This document shows, one piece after another, positions 1-22,149 of a DNA stretch of 64,000 nt. The notes under the pieces were generated by a model that was not told where the DNA came from, ran no database searches, and saw only the letters and a list, made by a program, of their open reading frames with translations. This DNA is from an uncultured Acidobacteriota bacterium (GTDB taxonomy: Bacteria; Acidobacteriota; UBA6911): NCBI GenBank assembly GCA_963839475.1, contig CAWIVH010000001.1, positions 844,627 to 908,626 of the forward strand. Reading direction: 5' to 3'. Position 1 is the first letter of the stretch. Every line of letters begins with the position of its first letter. The translations under genes and the position numbers were made by a program.

Positions 1-410
1 AAAGCCATGATGAACGCCGGCCGATGATTCGAGGGCCTGATCATTGGAGCACCTGTGCTCATATCCAGCCGACTATACTGCAAAAGGACCTTTTGTTTAA
101 CCGCCAACCTTCTCAAAAACCGTGGCACCGCCGCGGCAAGGCAGGCCGGCACCTTCTTCGTTTTGGGGGGCGCCATTGGCGGTAAATTGCGGGACATGCG
201 GGAGCGCACCCTTGCCTCCCAGAGCCACGATGTTCCCGGGCATGCTTCCGCATGCTCATACTCCACATCAGTTTTGGGATTGGCCGCAACCCGAGACGGC
301 GTTGTGGTCTCCGTGGCTTTCGCTGCGAGAATTTTTTGAAGCATGGCGGGAACAATGATAGGATCGCTCTCTTTGGCGCAGCTAATATTATCTTCGGTAT
401 CTTAGAACCT

Positions 411-1439
411 ATGCCAGAATTAAGACATGATCCGATCCAGAAACGATGGGTGATTATTGCCTCTGAGAGGGGACGCCGGCCGGACGACTTTCTCATCAAA
501 AACGAGCCTCATCCCGAAGGGTTTTGCCCCTTCTGTGAAGGCAACGAAAGCAAGACGCCGCCGGAGATCACCGCATTCCGCACAAATTTCAGCTATCCGA
601 ACCAGCCCGGCTGGCAGGTGCGGGTGGTGCCGAACAAGTTCCCGGCCCTGAGGATCGAAGGGAATCTCGACCGCAAAGGGATCGGGATGTATGACAAGAT
701 GAACGGTGTCGGCGCCCATGAGGTCATCATTGAAACGCCTCAGCATGATCTCGACCTGGCTGATGCGCCTATCGATCACATTAAAAGAGTCCTCACCATG
801 TATCGGGAGAGGCTCGTGGATTTGCTGCGCGATTACCGGTTCAAGTACATCCTGATCTTCCGAAACCACGGCGCGGCAGCCGGCGCCTCCCTGTCTCATC
901 CACACACGCAGATCATAGCCACACCCGTGACACCCCTGACGCTTTCCGAGGAGCTCATTTCAGCGAAAGAGCATTATCAAAACAAGGAGCGCTGCCTTTT
1001 CTGCGACGTGATCCAGCAGGAAATCGATTCGGGCGAGCGGATCGTCATGGCAAACGATCATTTTGTGGCCCTGGCCCCATTCGCCTCGCGCTTTCCTTTC
1101 GAGCTGTTCCTGGCGCCGAGAAATCACCATCACAGTTTCGCCGAAATCGGCGACGACATGATCCACCACCTGGCGGTGATTCTCAAAGAGGTCCTTCTGC
1201 GCAGCAAAAAGTGCCTGAACGATCCCCCGTACAATTTTATCATCCACACGATTCCCAACGTTAAGGCCCGTTCCAGAAGGAGGGATTACTGGGACACCAT
1301 TGAAGTGGATTTCCACTGGCATATCGAGTTGATGCCGCGGCTGACGCGCATTGCGGGCTTCGAATGGGGCACCGGTTTCTATATTAATCCGACAGCTCCG
1401 GAGGAAGCAGCCAAATACCTCCGTGAGGTCGAGCTCTAA
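411..1439 (+). CDS. Galactose-1-phosphate uridylyltransferase (GalT/HIT-like) family protein; possibly an ADP-glucose- or UDP-hexose-type nucleotidyl phosphorylase
   Basis: The ORF at 252-1439 was trimmed to the Met at 411 (MPELRHDPIQKRWVII). It has a GalT-like zinc motif FCPFCEGNE and the HIT-like nucleotidyl-transfer motif SLSHPHTQI. The stop at 1437-1439 is followed by AAGGGGG and the glgA ATG at 1450. Confidence 0.75.
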   Translation: MPELRHDPIQKRWVIIASERGRRPDDFLIKNEPHPEGFCPFCEGNESKTPPEITAFRTNFSYPNQPGWQVRVVPNKFPALRIEGNLDRKGIGMYDKMNGVGAHEVIIETPQHDLDLADAPIDHIKRVLTMYRERLVDLLRDYRFKYILIFRNHGAAAGASLSHPHTQIIATPVTPLTLSEELISAKEHYQNKERCLFCDVIQQEIDSGERIVMANDHFVALAPFASRFPFELFLAPRNHHHSFAEIGDDMIHHLAVILKEVLLRSKKCLNDPPYNFIIHTIPNVKARSRRRDYWDTIEVDFHWHIELMPRLTRIAGFEWGTGFYINPTAPEEAAKYLREVEL

Positions 1440-1449
1440 AGGGGGATGC

Positions 1450-2955
1450 ATGGGACAGAAACCCTGGACCATTGCAATGCTCGCCGCGGAATCGGTCCCC
1501 TATGCCAAGGTGGGAGGCTTGGGCGATGTGGTTGGAGCCCTTCCTCAATACCTGGAAAAACTCGGGGCGCACCCGATCATCATCATCCCCGCCTATCGCG
1601 ATATTCATCACGAAAACCACGGCATCGTGCCCTATTCCGCAATCCCTTGGCTGGACGTGCAGTTCGGCCCGGGTCAGATCCGGGCCGAGATTTTCCATAC
1701 CCGGATGAAGGGCACCAGCATAGAGGTTTACCTCGTGGGATGTCCGCAGTTTTTCTATCGCCACGGAATCTATGACGATCCAATGTCGGGGGAAGGCTTC
1801 CACGATAATATGGAGCGGTACTTTTTTTTCGTGAAGGCCTCGCTCGAATTCTTGAAGCGCAACGGCCAGCCGATCGACATTATCCACTGTCATGATTCCC
1901 ACACAGCCCTTGCCCCCGGGCTTCTGCGCGCGAATCTGGATCACGATCCTTTTTTTTCCCGTACCGGCAGCCTCTATACCATTCACAATCTGGCCTACCA
2001 GGGGATCTATCCCAGAGAGGCGCTTTCACTGGCCGGAGTCGATTACCGGTTTCACTACCCGGCTTCGCCTTTCGAATTCTGGGGCAAACTCAACATGATG
2101 AAAGTCGGGATAGAATGCGCTGACCTGGTGAACACGGTCAGTGAAACCTATGCCCATGAAATTCAGTCGTCCCCCGAGTACGGATATGGCTTGGAAGGTG
2201 TGCTGCGCGGTCGAAGCCAGGAGCTTTTCGGCATCGTCAACGGCATCGACTACAAGGAGTGGAGCCCGTCCATCGATCCGCTGATTCCCGCCCGTTACTC
2301 GGCCCGCAACCTTGCAGGCAAGGCCAAATGCAAGTCGGAGGTCTTGAAGCAATTCGGATTCCGCCATGCCGAGGACGGACTGCCCCTGATCGGGATGGTC
2401 TCAAGACTCGCGGACCAGAAAGGATTCGACCTCGTCGCGGACGCGATGAAGGATATTGCCCACCTGCCGCTGCGGCTGATGGTGCTCGGACAGGGGCAGC
2501 AGCGATATCAGGACCTCCTCCGGCATTTTGCGCATCGTCACCCTCACAGGATTGCCGTCAAGATTGGGTTCGATAACCGTCTGGCGCACGAGATCTACGC
2601 AGGCTCCGACATGTTCCTGATGCCCTCGCGCTTTGAGCCCTGTGGCCTGAACCAGCTGATCAGCCTGCGCTACGGTACTGTTCCTGTCGTTCGTTCGACG
2701 GGGGGGCTTGTCGACACCGTCGAGGACTACAGCGAGACCACAGGGGCGGGAACCGGCTTCCGTTTCCAGCATTATTCATCCTGGGACATGGTCAATGCCC
2801 TGCGTCGCGCCCTCGTCCTGTTCGACGACCGGCCGAGATGGCTGGAACTGATGCGCCAGGCTATGGAGCGGAACTGGTCCTGGGAAGAATCTGCCCGGCG
2901 GTACATGAACCTGTACGAAAGAATCTTTCATAAAAAGAATCCCGACTGGGATTAG
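1450..2955 (+). CDS. glgA: Glycogen (starch) synthase, ADP-glucose type
   Basis: The N-terminus MGQKPWTIAMLAAESVPYAKVGGLGDVVGALP carries the classic K-x-GGL-GDV motif, and the C-terminal half is GT-B-like (MPSRFEPCGLNQL). An AAGGGGG SD lies 6 nt upstream of the ATG. Confidence 0.9.
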   Translation: MGQKPWTIAMLAAESVPYAKVGGLGDVVGALPQYLEKLGAHPIIIIPAYRDIHHENHGIVPYSAIPWLDVQFGPGQIRAEIFHTRMKGTSIEVYLVGCPQFFYRHGIYDDPMSGEGFHDNMERYFFFVKASLEFLKRNGQPIDIIHCHDSHTALAPGLLRANLDHDPFFSRTGSLYTIHNLAYQGIYPREALSLAGVDYRFHYPASPFEFWGKLNMMKVGIECADLVNTVSETYAHEIQSSPEYGYGLEGVLRGRSQELFGIVNGIDYKEWSPSIDPLIPARYSARNLAGKAKCKSEVLKQFGFRHAEDGLPLIGMVSRLADQKGFDLVADAMKDIAHLPLRLMVLGQGQQRYQDLLRHFAHRHPHRIAVKIGFDNRLAHEIYAGSDMFLMPSRFEPCGLNQLISLRYGTVPVVRSTGGLVDTVEDYSETTGAGTGFRFQHYSSWDMVNALRRALVLFDDRPRWLELMRQAMERNWSWEESARRYMNLYERIFHKKNPDWD

Positions 2956-2966
2956 CCAGGAGCCTT

Positions 2967-4385
2967 ATGGCCTTCCGGCATTCGCATGAAAGATCTGGCG
3001 AAGAAAACTCGCGTGAGCGGAGAATTGCCGACCTGACTATCCTCAGCGTGGTCAGCCGCGCGCTGCAGGAATGCCGTGAGGAAACCGACGCGCTCCGGAT
3101 CATTCTTACCGGATTGACCCACGGGCGTGGGTTGGGATTCACCCGGGCTTTCGTCCTGCTGATCGATCCCCGAAATGAAATCCTCGAAGGACGCCTTGCA
3201 GTCGGACCATCCACCTTGGAAGAAGCCAGGAACAAATGGCAGGAAATGAGGCGGAAGCATCAAACCCTCGAGGAAATCCTGTCTGAGATCCCGGGAAAAA
3301 CTCATGGCGACATAGGCGCACAGGACGTGGCAGAGCGCATCCGCCTCCCTCTCTCCAGCCGGAACGAGGGCCTCATCCGCATCCTGGATTCTCGGCGGGG
3401 CTGTCTGGCGGTCGGAGGCATTTTCCAGCCCCTCGGGCTCCAGCTCGACCCATGGATCGAAGAAACCTTCGGACCGGACCACTTTGCACTCGCTCCTATT
3501 CACAACGCAGGCCGGGTTTTGGGCATGCTGATCGCCGACAACTCGGTTACCCGGCAAGCCATCGCTGCCGAGGCCTTGAATCTGCTCCAAATCTATGCGC
3601 AGGCGGCAGGAGCCGCAATCCAGAACATCCGCTACTGCCGTGAACTCGTTGAGAAAATCGCCGAGGGGGAAGACGCCAACCGCAAGCTGAAAGATAGCCA
3701 ACAGCACCTCCTCCAGGCAGAAAGGCTGGCTACTATCGGGAAAATGGCCGCACTGCTGGCACATGAGATCCGCACACCGCTGGTGTCCATAGGCGGCTTT
3801 GCACGGCGCATTCTCAAGCGGACAACGGACGAAGACCCCAGAAAAGAAGAAATGCAGATCATTGTTTCACAGGTATCTCACCTCGAGCGCATGGTGGAGG
3901 AAGTGCTCGGCTTCACGCGCATCTCCAAACCGGATTTCGAATCGGTCGACATCAACGAACTCATTCGCAGCGTAGTCCTGGCCATGAGCGATATGATGGA
4001 TCAGAACCCTATCCGGATGGTTCTCGAACTGCAGCCTGATCTCCCCCGGGCTCGTGTCGATCGCGTCCAAATTCGCCAAGTCCTCATGAATCTGATCGGG
4101 AACGCCGTCGAGGCCATGCCGGAAGGGGGGATCCTGACCATCACTTCGACCGGTGAGCGAGGCTACCTCGAAATCGGGGTGTTCGATACGGGCGCCGGAA
4201 TTGCACGGGAACACTGGGGTAAACTCTTCTCGCCATTTTTCACCACTAAACCTGCCGGAACAGGCCTGGGGTTGGCGGTCGTCTCGCAAATCATCGAAAA
4301 TCACGGGGGCTCGCTTGGATTTGAGAGTGACCCTGGCAAGGGAACCCGTTTCCATATCCGGCTGGCTTTCGAGCCGCGGCAGTAG
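2967..4385 (+). CDS. Cytoplasmic GAF-domain sensor histidine kinase
   Basis: It has an N-terminal GAF-like region, the H-box LLAHEIRTPL, the N-box VLMNLIGNAVEAM and the G-box GTGLGLAVV. No transmembrane segments are apparent. An AGGAG SD lies 4 nt upstream of the ATG. Confidence 0.85.
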   Translation: MAFRHSHERSGEENSRERRIADLTILSVVSRALQECREETDALRIILTGLTHGRGLGFTRAFVLLIDPRNEILEGRLAVGPSTLEEARNKWQEMRRKHQTLEEILSEIPGKTHGDIGAQDVAERIRLPLSSRNEGLIRILDSRRGCLAVGGIFQPLGLQLDPWIEETFGPDHFALAPIHNAGRVLGMLIADNSVTRQAIAAEALNLLQIYAQAAGAAIQNIRYCRELVEKIAEGEDANRKLKDSQQHLLQAERLATIGKMAALLAHEIRTPLVSIGGFARRILKRTTDEDPRKEEMQIIVSQVSHLERMVEEVLGFTRISKPDFESVDINELIRSVVLAMSDMMDQNPIRMVLELQPDLPRARVDRVQIRQVLMNLIGNAVEAMPEGGILTITSTGERGYLEIGVFDTGAGIAREHWGKLFSPFFTTKPAGTGLGLAVVSQIIENHGGSLGFESDPGKGTRFHIRLAFEPRQ

Positions 4386-4603
4386 GACGGTGTCCGCGAT
4401 GCATTCCAGGCGAGCCCACCAGCAGACGTTATCGTAATTGCGAATATGAGTACTTAGTGCCTCTTGCAATGAAGGGTGGTTTAGGCGGACAATTGTTCAA
4501 GCAAGGGATCACCGCAGATATTCGCCGATTCTCGGGACGAATTGTCGAATACAGATGGAACGGAATCCGTGATTTCTCGTACCAACTGTCGGGGGGTGAT
4601 GTC

Positions 4604-4981
4604 ATGTCAACCATCCTCATTGCGGACGACGACAGGAATTTGCGCCGTCTTTACAAGGAAGAACTCGAAGCGGAAGGTTATCGCACTCTTTTGGCCGTCA
4701 ACGGTATTCAAGCTCTCGAAATGGCCGAAAATGAGAAGCCCGATCTGGTAGTCATGGATATCCGGATGCCGGAAATGGACGGGCTGGAAGCGATGACACG
4801 AATACTGCACGACCGCGGAAGCATCCCGGTGATTCTAAATACGGCTTACTCCAGCTATCAGGAAAGTTTTCTGACCTGGGCCGCCGACGGTTACGTCATT
4901 AAGTCTTCGGACCTTGATCCGTTGAAAACCAAAATCCGGGAGGTCCTGCGAAATCGCGCCATGGCCTGCGCCGATTCTTGA
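4604..4981 (+). CDS. Single-domain response regulator (CheY-like receiver)
   Basis: MSTILIADDDRNLRRLYKEELEAEGYRTLLAVNG...DLVVMDIRMPEMDGLEAM is a receiver domain with acidic-pocket D residues and the phospho-accepting D in VVMDIRMP. The ORF was trimmed to the Met at 4604, which is preceded by a GGGGGTGA SD. Confidence 0.8.
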   Translation: MSTILIADDDRNLRRLYKEELEAEGYRTLLAVNGIQALEMAENEKPDLVVMDIRMPEMDGLEAMTRILHDRGSIPVILNTAYSSYQESFLTWAADGYVIKSSDLDPLKTKIREVLRNRAMACADS

Positions 4982-5035: not shown

Positions 5036-6022
<987 letters not shown>

Positions 6023-9761: not shown

Positions 9762-9899
9762 GAAATCCCCCAGTGCCGGCAGAGGCTTCATAATGCATGG
9801 CGCTGAGGGGACTGTCAATCGGCAGTTGGCGGAGTGCACCATTTCGCCGGTGATGGTGACCTGCGGTCAAAACCGGACTATGATTTCGAGGGCTTATCC

Positions 9900-10940
9900 A
9901 TGAACCCGAATAAGACTTCGCTGCTCATCGTGGACGACGAGATCTACATCCAGGAGATTTTAAAGAGCACCCTGGAGGAAGCCGGCTTCGAATGCACGGC
10001 CGTCGGCAGCGCGGAATCGGCCGAAGCCGAACTCGCGATAAAAAACTATTCCATCGTATTTTGTGACGTCGTCATGCCGGGAAAATCGGGCGTCGATTTC
10101 CTCCGGTCGATCCGCGCCCGTTATCCTCAAATGATTGTGGTGATGATCACGGCATTGGATACCGCCAGCAGTGCCATGGAAACCATTCGCATGGGCGCCT
10201 ACGACTATATCGTGAAGCCTTTCAACCTGGAGCTCGTGATCTCGGTTGCCAACCGGGCCAAAGATAAGCTGAGGCTCGAGGCATCCAACCGCGAGTACCA
10301 GGCATACCTTCAGCAGGTGGCCGATGATCGGGCGGCCGAAACCCGGCGTCTTTTTTATTCGATGACGCAGGTCTTGATAGGGCTTCTGGAGCTCAAAGAG
10401 CCGTTCAAGGCGGGCTACCTGAAACGCATCGCGGAAATGTCCCGCTATGTCGCTCGTGAGCTGAAAATGACCGAAGACGGGGTTCGAAAAGTATACCTCG
10501 CGGCTCTCCTGCACGACATCGGGATGATCAGCGTCGAAGACATGCTCCTCACCAAGCGCGGGACATTGACCGACAAGGAAACCGACCACATCCGCGAGCA
10601 CACCTCCGTCGCCGAATCGGTGCTGAAGCCAATCCTCACCGACGACGAGGTTCTGAAATATATCCGGCATCACCACGAGCGCTATGACGGTACGGGTTAT
10701 CCCGACGGTTTGCGGGGAAATATCATTCCCCTCGGGGCGCGGATCATTTCGGTGGTTGCCGCCTTCGTCGCCATGCAGTGGTCCAGGCCATACCGGAAGG
10801 CCTTGTCGCCGGAGGAGGCGATTGCCGAGCTCCAGCGCTGCACCCCTTCCCAATTCGACCATAACGTGGTGACGGTCTTCGCTTCCCTTTATGACCGCAT
10901 ATTCCGCACCATGGATAATTCCCAAATGGGGCAGCCATGA
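9900..10940 (+). CDS. Response regulator with HD-GYP domain (putative c-di-GMP phosphodiesterase)
   Basis: The REC domain includes LLIVDDEIYIQEIL...FCDVVMPG. The HD motif is LLHDIG and the GYP motif is HHERYDGTGYPDGL. Start is at 9900, trimmed from the ORF at 9834. Confidence 0.85.
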   Translation: MNPNKTSLLIVDDEIYIQEILKSTLEEAGFECTAVGSAESAEAELAIKNYSIVFCDVVMPGKSGVDFLRSIRARYPQMIVVMITALDTASSAMETIRMGAYDYIVKPFNLELVISVANRAKDKLRLEASNREYQAYLQQVADDRAAETRRLFYSMTQVLIGLLELKEPFKAGYLKRIAEMSRYVARELKMTEDGVRKVYLAALLHDIGMISVEDMLLTKRGTLTDKETDHIREHTSVAESVLKPILTDDEVLKYIRHHHERYDGTGYPDGLRGNIIPLGARIISVVAAFVAMQWSRPYRKALSPEEAIAELQRCTPSQFDHNVVTVFASLYDRIFRTMDNSQMGQP

Positions 10941-12277
10941 ATGCGCTGCGTCAGCTCCGCAGGGACGCGTCTCAGATCTGGGGTGCCGCGCTTCATGCCG
11001 TGGATCCGGAGATCGCGGTCAGGAACTGCCTTCGCATTGACGGCACACGGCTGCTGCTTGTGAGCCGGGTCATCGGCCGGGTGCCGGGCCGTGACATCTG
11101 GGTGATTGGCGTCGGAAAAGCTTCGGCCCCTATGGCGAGGGCGCTGGAGAAGATACTCGGGAAACGGCTGTCGGGCGGAATCCTGGTCACCAAATACGGG
11201 CACGGCCTCGCTTTGAAGCGAATCCAGGTTTTGGAAGCGGGCCATCCACTCCCCGATTCCAACGGGCTGGCCGCAGCGGAGCAAATCCGGGAATTCGCGG
11301 AGCACCGGATCAAGCCAAACGACCTGGTGCTGTGTCTCCTGTCCGGAGGCGGATCCGCACTGTTGGTCTCCCCGGCACCGGGCATTTCTCTTGAAGACAA
11401 GCTCGAATGCACACGCCTGCTTCTGCGCTCCGGCGCGACCATTCACGAGATGAATGCCATCCGCAAACACCTCTCGACCCTGAAGGGGGGCGGCATGGCC
11501 CGCCTGCTGTCGCGGGCACATGTTGTATCGTTGATTCTGTCGGATGTTGTCGGCGACTCGCTGGATACGATCGCTTCAGGACCGATGGTTCCCGATTCGA
11601 CCACTTTCAGGGATTGCATCGAGATTCTGAAAAAACTGAATTGCCTGGATTCGGTTCCGGTGAAAGTCAGAGCCCGGCTGGAAGCCGGGGCGGCGGGCGC
11701 CATCCCGGAGACACCCAAACCCGGCGACCCGGTCTTTCAGCTCAAGGAAAACAAAATAGTCGGGAGCAACGCTCAGGCTTGCGCGGCAGCTGCCAAAGCT
11801 GCCCGGAAACTCGGCTATCGCACTCTGGTACTTAGCACACGCATGGAAGGGGACACGAAGGAAGCCGCCGGCTTTCACATGAGCATCGCGGAGGAAATTG
11901 CCTACGGCGGTCAGCCGCTCCGCAGGCCGGCTTGCGTGCTGAGCGGTGGAGAAACCACCGTCCGGTTGACCGGAAACGGAAAAGGCGGAAGAAACCAGGA
12001 ATTCGTGCTCCAGTGTGTCGCCAGGCTTGCGGGATTGAAGGCGCCTTGCGTCGTGGCAAGCGTGGGCACCGACGGGACCGACGGCCCGACGGACGCGGCC
12101 GGAGCCGTCGCGGACAATGCTTCGCTGGAGCGTTCAAAGCGGATCGATCCGCGCTTTCTCGCCGATGCCATCCATCAAAACAACTCGTACGAGTTTTTCA
12201 AGCGCCTGGGAGACCTTATCCTGACGGGCCCCACCCGGACCAACGTGATGGACCTTCGAATCTTTCTGATCTGTTGA
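10937..12277 (+). CDS. Glycerate 2-kinase (MOFRL/DUF4147 family, GckA/TtuD-like)
   Basis: Family-typical regions are GVGKASAPMA...LLSGGGSALL...ILSDVVGDSLDTIASGP...VGTDGTDGP. It overlaps the upstream stop (ATGA). Confidence 0.8.
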   Translation: MNALRQLRRDASQIWGAALHAVDPEIAVRNCLRIDGTRLLLVSRVIGRVPGRDIWVIGVGKASAPMARALEKILGKRLSGGILVTKYGHGLALKRIQVLEAGHPLPDSNGLAAAEQIREFAEHRIKPNDLVLCLLSGGGSALLVSPAPGISLEDKLECTRLLLRSGATIHEMNAIRKHLSTLKGGGMARLLSRAHVVSLILSDVVGDSLDTIASGPMVPDSTTFRDCIEILKKLNCLDSVPVKVRARLEAGAAGAIPETPKPGDPVFQLKENKIVGSNAQACAAAAKAARKLGYRTLVLSTRMEGDTKEAAGFHMSIAEEIAYGGQPLRRPACVLSGGETTVRLTGNGKGGRNQEFVLQCVARLAGLKAPCVVASVGTDGTDGPTDAAGAVADNASLERSKRIDPRFLADAIHQNNSYEFFKRLGDLILTGPTRTNVMDLRIFLIC

Positions 12278-21000: not shown

Positions 21001-22149
21001 CTATTCCAACCTTCTCAGGGCGAGAATCGTGACGTCGTCAGTCACCTCGCCGCTGACAGTATAATCGGCAATCCTCTGGTAAAGGCTGCGAACAAATTGC
21101 GCCGTACTTTCATGGCAATGATGCCGGATCGCCTCGGCAAACCGGCGCTGGTCGAATATCTCGTCATCAGGTCCGACGGCATCGGTTGAACCATCGCTGG
21201 CCAGGATCAAGGTGTCGCCTTTCTCCATCTGGATGGCAACCTGATCATAGCAGGACTCCTCGAGCAGACCGAGGGGAACGCCGGATACTGAAATTTGGCT
21301 GACTTCGCCGCCGCGGATCAAAGTCGGATAGGGCATGCCGCCGTTGGAGTACCACCCCGCCCCGGTTTCAAGATGGATGCGGAGATAAGCCACGGCAATA
21401 TAATTCTGAACCTGGTATCGGCCGAGCAGGTTCCGGTTCAACAGTCCGAGAGTTTCGGCCGGCGACATCGAATTTCCGAACAGGGAGCGGATCTGGCCGC
21501 TGAAAACGGCGCCGTAAAGAGCCGCGGGTATAGATTTTCCTGATACATCTCCTATGATCACCGACAATTCGCGGGTCGCCGGATCGTAGTCAAAATCATA
21601 AAGGTCGCCGCCCACTTCGCGCGCCGGGTGATAGGCAACGGCCAGCTCGAAGCCGTCCAGGTTCGGGCATGTGGGAGGCAGGATGTATCGCTGGATGTCC
21701 CGGGCGATCTCCAGTTCACGCGCCAATCTCTCCCGCCGGATCAACTCCTTCCGGAAACGGGCGTTTTCCAGCGTCAGGCGGCGGCTTTCCAGGCCGCGCT
21801 CCACCGTCATCAGGAGATCCGGCGGATCCCAGGGCTTAACGATATACCGGAACACCTTGCAGCTGTTGATCGCCTCCACCAGGACGTCCACATCCGTATA
21901 TCCGGTCAGAATGACACGGATGGCATCCGGCATCACGTCGATCGTGTGCCTCAGGAATTCTATGCCCGTCATATCCGGCATCCGCTGGTCGGCAATGATG
22001 CATGCAATATCCTCGTTCGCTTTCACCAGCTGGAGCGCCTCATGACCGCTGCTGGCCGCGAGGACCGGATAGCGGTTCACGAAGGTGCGGCGAAGCTTCT
22101 GCAGGTTGGCGATCTCGTCGTCAACAACGAGGATTTTGTCTGCTTCCAT
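21001..22149 (-). CDS. Response regulator with PP2C-type Ser/Thr phosphatase output (RsbU-like)
   Basis: The REC domain is ILVVDDEIANL...IIADQRMPDMTGIEFL. The C-terminal PPM/SpoIIE-like domain includes GDVSGKSIPAAL...ILASDGSTDAVGPDDEIF. Confidence 0.8.
   Translation of the reverse strand: MEADKILVVDDEIANLQKLRRTFVNRYPVLAASSGHEALQLVKANEDIACIIADQRMPDMTGIEFLRHTIDVMPDAIRVILTGYTDVDVLVEAINSCKVFRYIVKPWDPPDLLMTVERGLESRRLTLENARFRKELIRRERLARELEIARDIQRYILPPTCPNLDGFELAVAYHPAREVGGDLYDFDYDPATRELSVIIGDVSGKSIPAALYGAVFSGQIRSLFGNSMSPAETLGLLNRNLLGRYQVQNYIAVAYLRIHLETGAGWYSNGGMPYPTLIRGGEVSQISVSGVPLGLLEESCYDQVAIQMEKGDTLILASDGSTDAVGPDDEIFDQRRFAEAIRHHCHESTAQFVRSLYQRIADYTVSGEVTDDVTILALRRLE

Follow-up and report, generated by a model that had tools for sequence, protein, structure and literature searches.

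In the textbook scheme, bacterial glycogen is synthesized by GlgC, GlgA and GlgB, with GlgC under allosteric control. E. coli also possesses an ADP-sugar pyrophosphatase, AspP (NudF), a Nudix-fold enzyme that hydrolyzes ADP-glucose to AMP and glucose-1-phosphate (Glc-1-P). In plants, the GalT-family protein At5g18200 (Protein Data Bank [PDB] entries 1Z84 and 2H39) acts on the same sugar nucleotide; McCoy and colleagues are said to have found in 2006 that it is without GalT activity, has a Km for ADP-glucose in the low micromolar range and an equilibrium constant of 5-40 toward ADP + Glc-1-P. We analyzed a stretch of 64,000 nucleotides (nt), here called the window, from an uncultured Acidobacteriota bacterium (GTDB lineage UBA6911; assembly GCA_963839475.1, contig CAWIVH010000001.1, positions 844,627 to 908,626 of the forward strand), in which a gene for a GalT-like enzyme of the At5g18200 type lies directly upstream of the glycogen synthase gene glgA and is followed by genes for a GAF histidine kinase (HK) and a stand-alone receiver (REC). 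These four genes are arranged in series on the + strand with gaps of 10, 11 and 218 nt. The features of the locus, with the evidence for each, are as follows:

28..410, + strand: upstream non-coding region, the presumed operon promoter; the open reading frame (ORF) upstream on the + strand ends at about 27.
411..1439, + strand: GalT-family (class I, HIT-like) nucleotidyl transferase of the At5g18200/ADP-glucose phosphorylase type, 342 amino acids (PF01087, PF02744, PDB ranking, identities, tree, signature residues).
1450..2955, + strand: glycogen synthase GlgA, ADP-glucose type (GT5), 501 amino acids (PF08323, TIGR02095).
2967..4385, + strand: cytoplasmic sensor histidine kinase, 472 amino acids, with an N-terminal GAF domain bearing a helical insert, HisKA and HATPase_c (Pfam, structure model, orthologues).
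4386..4603, no strand: kinase-receiver spacer, 218 nt, lineage-specific (Rfam, consensus scans, blastn, folding, junction in relatives).
4604..4981, + strand: single-domain response regulator (receiver only), 125 amino acids (PF00072 at 87 bits, residues read from the sequence, orthologues that follow the kinase).

We propose that the four genes serve the turnover of glycogen (alpha-glucan) as one cassette: an ADP-glucose:phosphate adenylyltransferase would control or recycle the pool of ADP-glucose, with a two-component pair dedicated to its regulation. We assign this reading a probability of roughly 0.55. The GalT-like ORF starts with the ATG at 411 and ends with the TAA at 1437-1439. The ATG of glgA at 1450 lies 10 nt past this stop, with AAGGGGG at 1438-1444; the kinase ATG at 2967 lies 11 nt past the glgA stop with AGGAG ahead of it, and the receiver ATG is at 4604. 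The 10-nt and 11-nt gaps, the Shine-Dalgarno sequences and the lack of intervening terminator-like sites fit a predicted single transcript that extends at least through the kinase gene. A preliminary description of this DNA had reported the coordinates, the motifs, the 10-nt gap between the GalT-like gene and glgA, the AAGGGGG sequence and the position of the 218-bp spacer, and all of these were reproduced.

The GalT-like protein contains both HIT-like half-domains of the class I GalT family (IPR001937), PF01087 (53.6 bits, cut-off 22.1) and PF02744 (45.1 bits, cut-off 29.2), and carries the motifs CPFCEGNE at residues 39-46 and HPHTQI at residues 163-168. It possesses a Zn site at C39/C42, an H163-P-H165-T-Q167 motif with the nucleophilic second histidine, and a second CxxC at C195/C198, and the CxxC and H-x-H-x-Q motifs are kept in 46-49 of the 49 GalT-like homologues. 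A PDB-wide search returned 1z84 (At5g18200) as the best match over the full length (E = 2e-72, 247 bits), and the same ranking gave 135 bits for P. aerophilum GalT (PaGalT), 82 bits for E. coli GalT (EcGalT) and 79 bits for human GALT. The window protein is 38% identical to At5g18200, 31% to PaGalT and 24% to EcGalT. In a crude neighbor-joining tree of 50 bacterial sequences and only three references, At5g18200 grouped with the bacterial clade, branching at its base, whereas PaGalT fell outside and EcGalT was the outgroup.

The residue comparison pointed in the same direction. The window protein equals At5g18200 at E46, H103, W303, F317, G322 and Y-I-N-P 324-327, where PaGalT and EcGalT differ wherever they can be aligned, and its residues 316-327 read GFEWGTGFYINP. 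All of the homologues found in a glycogen context equal At5g18200 at N75, P78, H103, W303, F317, G322 and Y-I-N-P 324-327, most of which differ in PaGalT and EcGalT; we use these signature residues as a marker of similarity, not of adenine contacts. Together, PDB ranking, identities, tree and residue signature support the grouping of this protein with the plant ADP-glucose phosphorylase and not with the Leloir GalTs. The preliminary description had suggested an ADP-glucose enzyme of this kind and had named phylogenetic placement as a check; the placement, within the limits of a three-reference tree, came out in its favor.

The window enzyme thus shares with At5g18200 the HxHxQ nucleophile motif, both CxxC metal sites, the sugar-side motif GFExGTGxYINP, and E46, H103 and W303. 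It differs in 62% of its residues, and the bacterial type is operon-linked to glgA, glgC, GH57 genes and a two-component pair, whereas the plant enzyme has no such context. With the class I Leloir GalTs (E. coli, 1HXP; P. aerophilum, 6K5Z; human GALT) it has in common PF01087 and PF02744, the Zn CxxC and the His-x-His-x-Gln ping-pong nucleophile, but it is only 24-31% identical to them, lacks the GalT-specific residues at the compared sites, and scores 147.6 against the cut-off of 448 for the Leloir equivalog PRK11720. The cut-off of TIGR00209 (galT) is narrowly passed (111.8 versus 102.1), which explains why public records name the homologues galactose-1-phosphate uridylyltransferase. The family is large, with 8669 representatives (50% identity) at E <= 1e-3 and 2452 at E <= 1e-30.

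To describe the gene neighborhoods, one genome per GTDB species was scanned, and 43 loci with GalT-like homologues 40-82% identical to the window protein were picked via peptide words shared with the query; window proteins and recurring neighbor families were then mapped onto them. The taxon labels, which are those of the submitters of the metagenome-assembled genomes (MAGs), include Acidobacteriota, Nitrospirae, Brocadiaceae, Cloacimonadota, Elusimicrobia, Glassbacteria, WOR-3, Omnitrophota, KSB1, Myxococcia, Gemmatimonadales and others. Of the 43 loci, 17 contain glgA, which in 16 is the next gene downstream of the GalT-like gene; 15 encode a kinase orthologue of full length with the receiver after it, and 10 have glgC within the cluster. 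One or more alpha-glucan genes occur in 25 of the 43 loci, and in 18 of the 29 that have at least 3 kb on both sides. GH57 enzymes and alpha-glucan phosphorylase are frequent near the GalT-like genes. Neighboring glgC genes were confirmed by TIGR02091 (467 and 449 bits versus a cut-off of 425), alpha-glucan phosphorylase by TIGR02094 and the GH57 branching enzyme (BE) by Pfam.

The order of the genes varies among lineages. With GalTL denoting the GalT-like gene, it is GalTL-GlgA-HK-REC in Acidobacteriota, GalTL-GlgA-HK-REC-GlgC-GH57 branching enzyme in Brocadiaceae, HK-REC-GlgC-GalTL-GlgA in Cloacimonadota, and GH57-GalTL-branching enzyme-HK-REC-GlgC in Glassbacteria, Gemmatimonadales and an 'archaeon'-labelled MAG. 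Such variation argues that the linkage itself has been selected for, and that the genes were not simply inherited as a block. The closest relatives (83-85% identical) have the order GH57 - alpha-glucan phosphorylase - GalTL - GlgA - HK - REC - HEAT protein - cyclic nucleotide (cNMP)/SpoIIE phosphatase - second GlgA. Among the family representatives, fused proteins were also detected, one GlgA+GalTL (P0165, 814 amino acids) and two GH57+GalTL (P0133 and P0154, about 860-875 amino acids), all three known without genomic context and being either true fusions or frameshifted gene calls. The linkage of the GalT-like gene with glgA proposed in the preliminary description therefore extends well beyond this genome, since the adjacency recurs across many phyla and fused proteins exist.

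Like the classical glycogen operons (E. coli glgBXCAP), these clusters combine an ADP-glucose-type GlgA with synthetic and degradative glucan enzymes, and the related loci add GlgC, branching enzyme and alpha-glucan phosphorylase. Unlike them, they carry a HIT-type ADP-glucose phosphorylase-like gene directly upstream of glgA, their branching/processing enzymes belong to GH57 and not to GH13, and a GAF kinase and a receiver-only regulator are embedded in them.

A separate subgroup of GalT-like proteins occurs in nine Thermodesulfovibrionia-type loci (L021-L023, L026, L027, L032, L035, L039 and L040), where the context is coaX - GalT-like - Usp - JAB - (FAD oxidoreductase) - TonB and no glucan genes are found. 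These proteins deviate at exactly the signature positions 75-77, 103 and 325-327, so that the signature tracks the glycogen context. The GalT-like proteins in the coaX/Usp context probably use a different substrate.

Several further GalT-like homologues stood out. In L024, L036 (8957-9982) and L038 (10001-11014), the nucleophilic histidine is missing (H165 replaced by R or Y), and in two of these Q167 is also replaced, by H or F; one His-less copy belongs to an Omnitrophota MAG, where it is the upstream member of two GalT-like genes in tandem. These homologues are probably inactive or repurposed paralogues. The acidobacterial MAG MFD02979.bin.1.139 contains two GalT-like paralogues (L002 and L004), which share 82% and 73% identity with the window protein; the latter comes after GH57 and alpha-glucan phosphorylase genes and has no glgA or kinase gene downstream. 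In the 'archaeon'-labelled MAG (L014), the gene order is that of Glassbacteria L028 and Gemmatimonadales L043, and the branching enzyme is 77-78% identical to theirs, which makes the taxon label of one or more of these MAGs doubtful.

The window GlgA belongs to the ADP-glucose type (TIGR02095, 529.4 bits versus a cut-off of 328.45; PF08323, 233 bits) and carries KVGGLGDV from residue 20. Searches of the whole 64-kb window by tblastn found no glgC, no GH57 gene and no alpha-glucan phosphorylase gene, and no glgC was found within +/-10 kb in the closest acidobacterial relatives. The preliminary description had drawn on the lack of glgC in the window, an argument that did not survive the comparison: bona fide glgC, above the TIGR02091 cut-off, clusters with the GalT-like gene in 10 of the 43 loci, in several of them directly beside it, which indicates that the GalT-like enzyme accompanies GlgC and is not a substitute for it. 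Most Acidobacteriota MAGs, moreover, carry glgABC (PMC8100337). The absence of glgC from the window is thus of little weight. A role of the GalT-like enzyme as a general glgC replacement was rejected on the same co-occurrence.

The histidine kinase contains HisKA (44 bits) and HATPase_c (87 bits) domains, with the H-box AHEIRTPL (His266) and the motifs NLIGNAVEA, DTGAGI and GTGLGL, and no hydrophobic segment was found in its 472 residues. An AlphaFold2 model of residues 1-245 had a mean confidence score (pLDDT) of 84 and showed a GAF fold, spanning about residues 20-245, with a helical insert of ~60 residues. Foldseek matched this model with probability 1.0 to the GAF domains 3oov, 3trc and 5w10 (MCP, PtsP and the cAMP-binding Lcd1), that is, to a generic GAF domain, and suggested no ligand. 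The kinase orthologues align end to end, sensor region included, at 30-57% identity, and the sensor region has an invariant motif of its own comprising T51, G53, F58, R60-A61, G80-P81, W91, P177, G186 and D191-N192 (GLGFNRAF ... GP ... W ... DN). Searching with the sensor domain alone returned only 2 matches; the full-length kinase was the query that worked. Extra N-terminal GAF or PAS domains are present on the kinase in some lineages. At residue 59 (window positions 3139-3141) the window kinase reads G-F-T-R-A where G-F-N-R-A is near-invariant, Asn59 being found in all other aligned orthologues but one; this change may alter ligand binding or be neutral.

The receiver matches PF00072 with 87 bits over residues 4-112 of 125, has D9/D10, the phospho-acceptor D52, T80 and K100, and contains no output domain. 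Its orthologues are 43-72% identical and come after the kinase in every locus seen. The pair resembles CheY-like single-domain regulators with cytoplasmic GAF/PAS kinases in its 125-residue receiver with all phospho-acceptor residues and no output domain and in its soluble HisKA partner. It differs from them in its location inside storage-polysaccharide clusters and in its GAF domain with the helical insert and its own invariant motif. By this conserved adjacency, and by its place inside glucan clusters in 15 of the 43 loci, the pair is a candidate cognate kinase-regulator couple that would control the glycogen genes. The preliminary suggestion that the kinase and receiver belong to the glycogen module was strengthened by the conserved synteny and the full-length orthologues in 15 of the 43 loci. 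A second acidobacterial copy of the pair lies near PFK and glycogen phosphorylase genes. Since the pair is not always beside glucan genes, its link with glycogen is frequent and cross-phylum, not obligatory.

These features are consistent with a mechanism modelled on the plant enzyme. By analogy with At5g18200, His165 would attack the alpha-phosphate of ADP-glucose, free Glc-1-P and leave an adenylyl-enzyme, from which phosphate (Pi) would take the AMP to form ADP, giving a ping-pong reaction with the net form ADP-glucose + Pi <-> Glc-1-P + ADP. The GalT-like enzyme would in this way set or recycle the ADP-glucose pool drawn on by the co-transcribed GlgA. We infer both substrate and direction, and phosphorolysis is the most likely direction; it is likelier than ATP-independent synthesis because GlgC co-occurs and because of the equilibrium and the micromolar Km reportedly found for the plant enzyme. 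Phosphorolysis would turn unused ADP-glucose back into Glc-1-P while the phosphoanhydride bond is retained in ADP, so that the enzyme would counterbalance GlgC and save energy. Like AspP, the proposed enzyme would remove ADP-glucose and oppose glycogen synthesis; unlike AspP, which has an unrelated fold and wastes the anhydride bond, it would conserve that bond as ADP. The GAF kinase would sense an intracellular ligand and phosphorylate the receiver-only regulator. As it has no DNA-binding domain, the receiver must work via protein contacts or a relay, and we infer that it acts on the storage-glucan machinery by protein-protein contact or phosphorelay.

The same enzyme could be imagined to run in the synthetic direction, converting Glc-1-P and ADP to ADP-glucose and Pi and thereby feeding GlgA without ATP, so that it would replace or supplement GlgC in this lineage. 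We consider this unlikely. Its GlgA partner would then complete a route from Glc-1-P to glucan and Pi, which is the reverse of glycogen phosphorylase and presumably unfavorable at cellular ratios of Pi to Glc-1-P, and the equilibrium of the plant enzyme reportedly lies 5- to 40-fold toward phosphorolysis. In 10 of the 43 loci the cluster also contains bona fide glgC, sometimes as the immediate neighbor of the GalT-like gene, and glgABC is present in most Acidobacteriota MAGs (PMC8100337). The synthetic direction nevertheless stays live because the gene directly upstream of glgA holds the place that glgC has in classical operons and because glgC is absent from the 64-kb window and from the +/-10 kb examined in the closest acidobacterial relatives; a GlgA-GalTL fusion would also suit the channelling of ADP and ADP-glucose, and in relatives the next gene upstream encodes an alpha-glucan phosphorylase, an enzyme that produces Glc-1-P. 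That the protein is instead a genuine Leloir galactose-1-phosphate uridylyltransferase, placed beside glgA to route galactose-derived Glc-1-P into glycogen, is very improbable. The marginal pass of TIGR00209, the public annotation and the 31% identity to PaGalT, a true GalT, would agree with such an enzyme, but the PRK11720 equivalog was failed, and score, tree and signature residues are all nearer to At5g18200. The preliminary description had named galK-type neighbors as evidence for a Leloir enzyme. Scanning the 49 records (the window and 48 loci, 820 kb in all) with PROSITE-type galactokinase/GHMP signature patterns yielded no match near any homologue, and no GHMP kinase, epimerase or galM-type family was found by Pfam among the called neighbors in L044-L048. 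A Leloir context for the gene was rejected on the empty 820-kb scan; no galK or galE lies nearby in these records, and the neighbors are the ADP-glucose enzymes GlgC and GlgA, not UDP-sugar enzymes.

Proteins of the GalT/HIT branch act on substrates as varied as ADP-glucose, GDP-L-galactose/GDP-glucose, Ap4A and APS. The window enzyme might accordingly be a phosphorylase or transferase for another nucleotide sugar (e.g., GDP-glucose or non-glucose ADP-hexoses) that proofreads the pool, like the animal GDP-glucose phosphorylase, all the more as nucleotide specificity is unreadable from sequence here. This seems improbable, given signature residues identical to those of the ADP-glucose enzyme and consistent neighbors that make or use ADP-glucose. 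For the two-component genes, it is doubtful, but worth weighing, that they form a general signalling module that travels beside glycogen genes without regulating them. Orthologous pairs without nearby glucan genes in Calditrichaeota and KSB1, and the 218-nt spacer that sets the window receiver off from the transcript of the upstream genes, would fit a module of this kind. On the other side, the pair sits among glycogen genes in at least nine differently labelled lineages and in several orders (GalTL-GlgA-HK-REC, HK-REC-GlgC-GalTL-GlgA and GalTL-BE-HK-REC-GlgC), and the additional acidobacterial copy keeps company with PFK and glycogen phosphorylase.

A number of observations weigh against the proposed ADP-glucose turnover cassette itself. 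Our literature search found no activity reports for bacterial members of the At5g18200 type. The next-closest solved relative, PaGalT, is a true uridylyltransferase despite its 31% identity, and nucleotide specificity is therefore unreadable from homology alone; the TIGR00209 galT cut-off, too, is just passed. An enzyme that destroys ADP-glucose looks paradoxical when co-transcribed with glgA. No glucan gene was present in the examined flanks of 18 of the 43 GalT-like loci, and kinase and receiver are also paired at sites without glycogen genes nearby, in Calditrichaeota L050 and KSB1 L051, so that the pair may be a broader regulator.

The 218-nt spacer between kinase and receiver was examined separately. 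In the closest relatives, the two genes overlap by 4 nt or lie ~12 nt apart, indicating that the spacer is specific to this lineage. Within 4386-4603 there was no Rfam match at E <= 1, promoter-like and terminator-like sites were at background level in consensus scans, and blastn found no match in the 48 loci or the rest of the window; the folding z-score of +0.20 was not unusual. A riboswitch or small RNA, a promoter or terminator, a repeat and a conserved element were rejected on these null results. The spacer had been called unusual in the preliminary description, which in a functional sense it is not; it is an unremarkable lineage-specific gap that may hold an internal promoter at most.

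The surroundings of the locus were also inspected. In the presumed promoter region at 28-410, a consensus scan detected no significant promoter-like site on the + strand, and no similarity to related loci was found. The + strand ORF ending at 25-27 (frame 1, ...KAMMNAGR*) has a C-terminus unlike that of the alpha-glucan phosphorylase preceding the GalT-like gene in the closest relatives, suggesting that the upstream neighbor in this genome may differ from theirs. Downstream, the receiver gene is followed by an aldo/keto reductase gene (5036-6022), where the closest relatives continue differently; in L044 (14778-19016) and L048 (5417-10240), a HEAT-repeat protein, a cNMP-binding SpoIIE-type phosphatase and a second, divergent GlgA (NF001905, 860 bits) are encoded. 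Elsewhere in the window, a gene for a receiver-HD (HD_5) protein (9834-10940) overlaps a DUF4147/MOFRL (glycerate-kinase-like) gene (10937-12277) by 4 nt, and a receiver-SpoIIE phosphatase is encoded on the minus strand (21001-22149).

Each of these proteins belongs to a known family, and it is the assembly that we have not found described: a bacterial At5g18200-type enzyme joined to glgA, glgC and GH57 genes, partly as fusions, together with a dedicated GAF kinase/receiver pair inside glycogen clusters. A literature search turned up no bacterial glycogen cluster described as containing a GalT-like/HIT enzyme or two-component system. A 2024 Chemical Reviews article on prokaryotic alpha-glucan enzymes makes no mention of GalT/HIT, histidine kinases or two-component systems in 300,000 of its 445,374 characters. 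That this set recurs across many bacterial phyla suggests that glycogen metabolism in bacteria has a layer of control not yet described. As a tentative extension, which we regard as possible rather than probable, many uncultured or poorly studied phyla may run an energy-conserving ADP-glucose cycle made up of a HIT-type ADP-glucose:phosphate adenylyltransferase, GlgA and GlgC, with the GAF kinase and receiver switching the enzymes between storage and mobilization post-translationally. The phyla concerned would include Acidobacteriota, Nitrospirota, Planctomycetota/Brocadiaceae, Cloacimonadota, Elusimicrobiota, Gemmatimonadota and Glassbacteria. In such a cycle, the HIT enzyme and GlgC would have the net reaction ATP + Pi <-> ADP + pyrophosphate, and the HIT enzyme and GlgA would amount to an ADP-catalyzed glucan phosphorylase or synthase.

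If the GalT-like protein is an ADP-glucose phosphorylase, thousands of genomes would encode a so far unrecognized enzyme whose substrate is the committed intermediate of glycogen synthesis, a plant enzyme of obscure role would gain a clear physiological context, and a widespread annotation error as GalT would be corrected. A two-component pair embedded among glycogen genes would represent a novel type of carbon-storage control, in organisms that matter for soil carbon, wastewater treatment and anammox.

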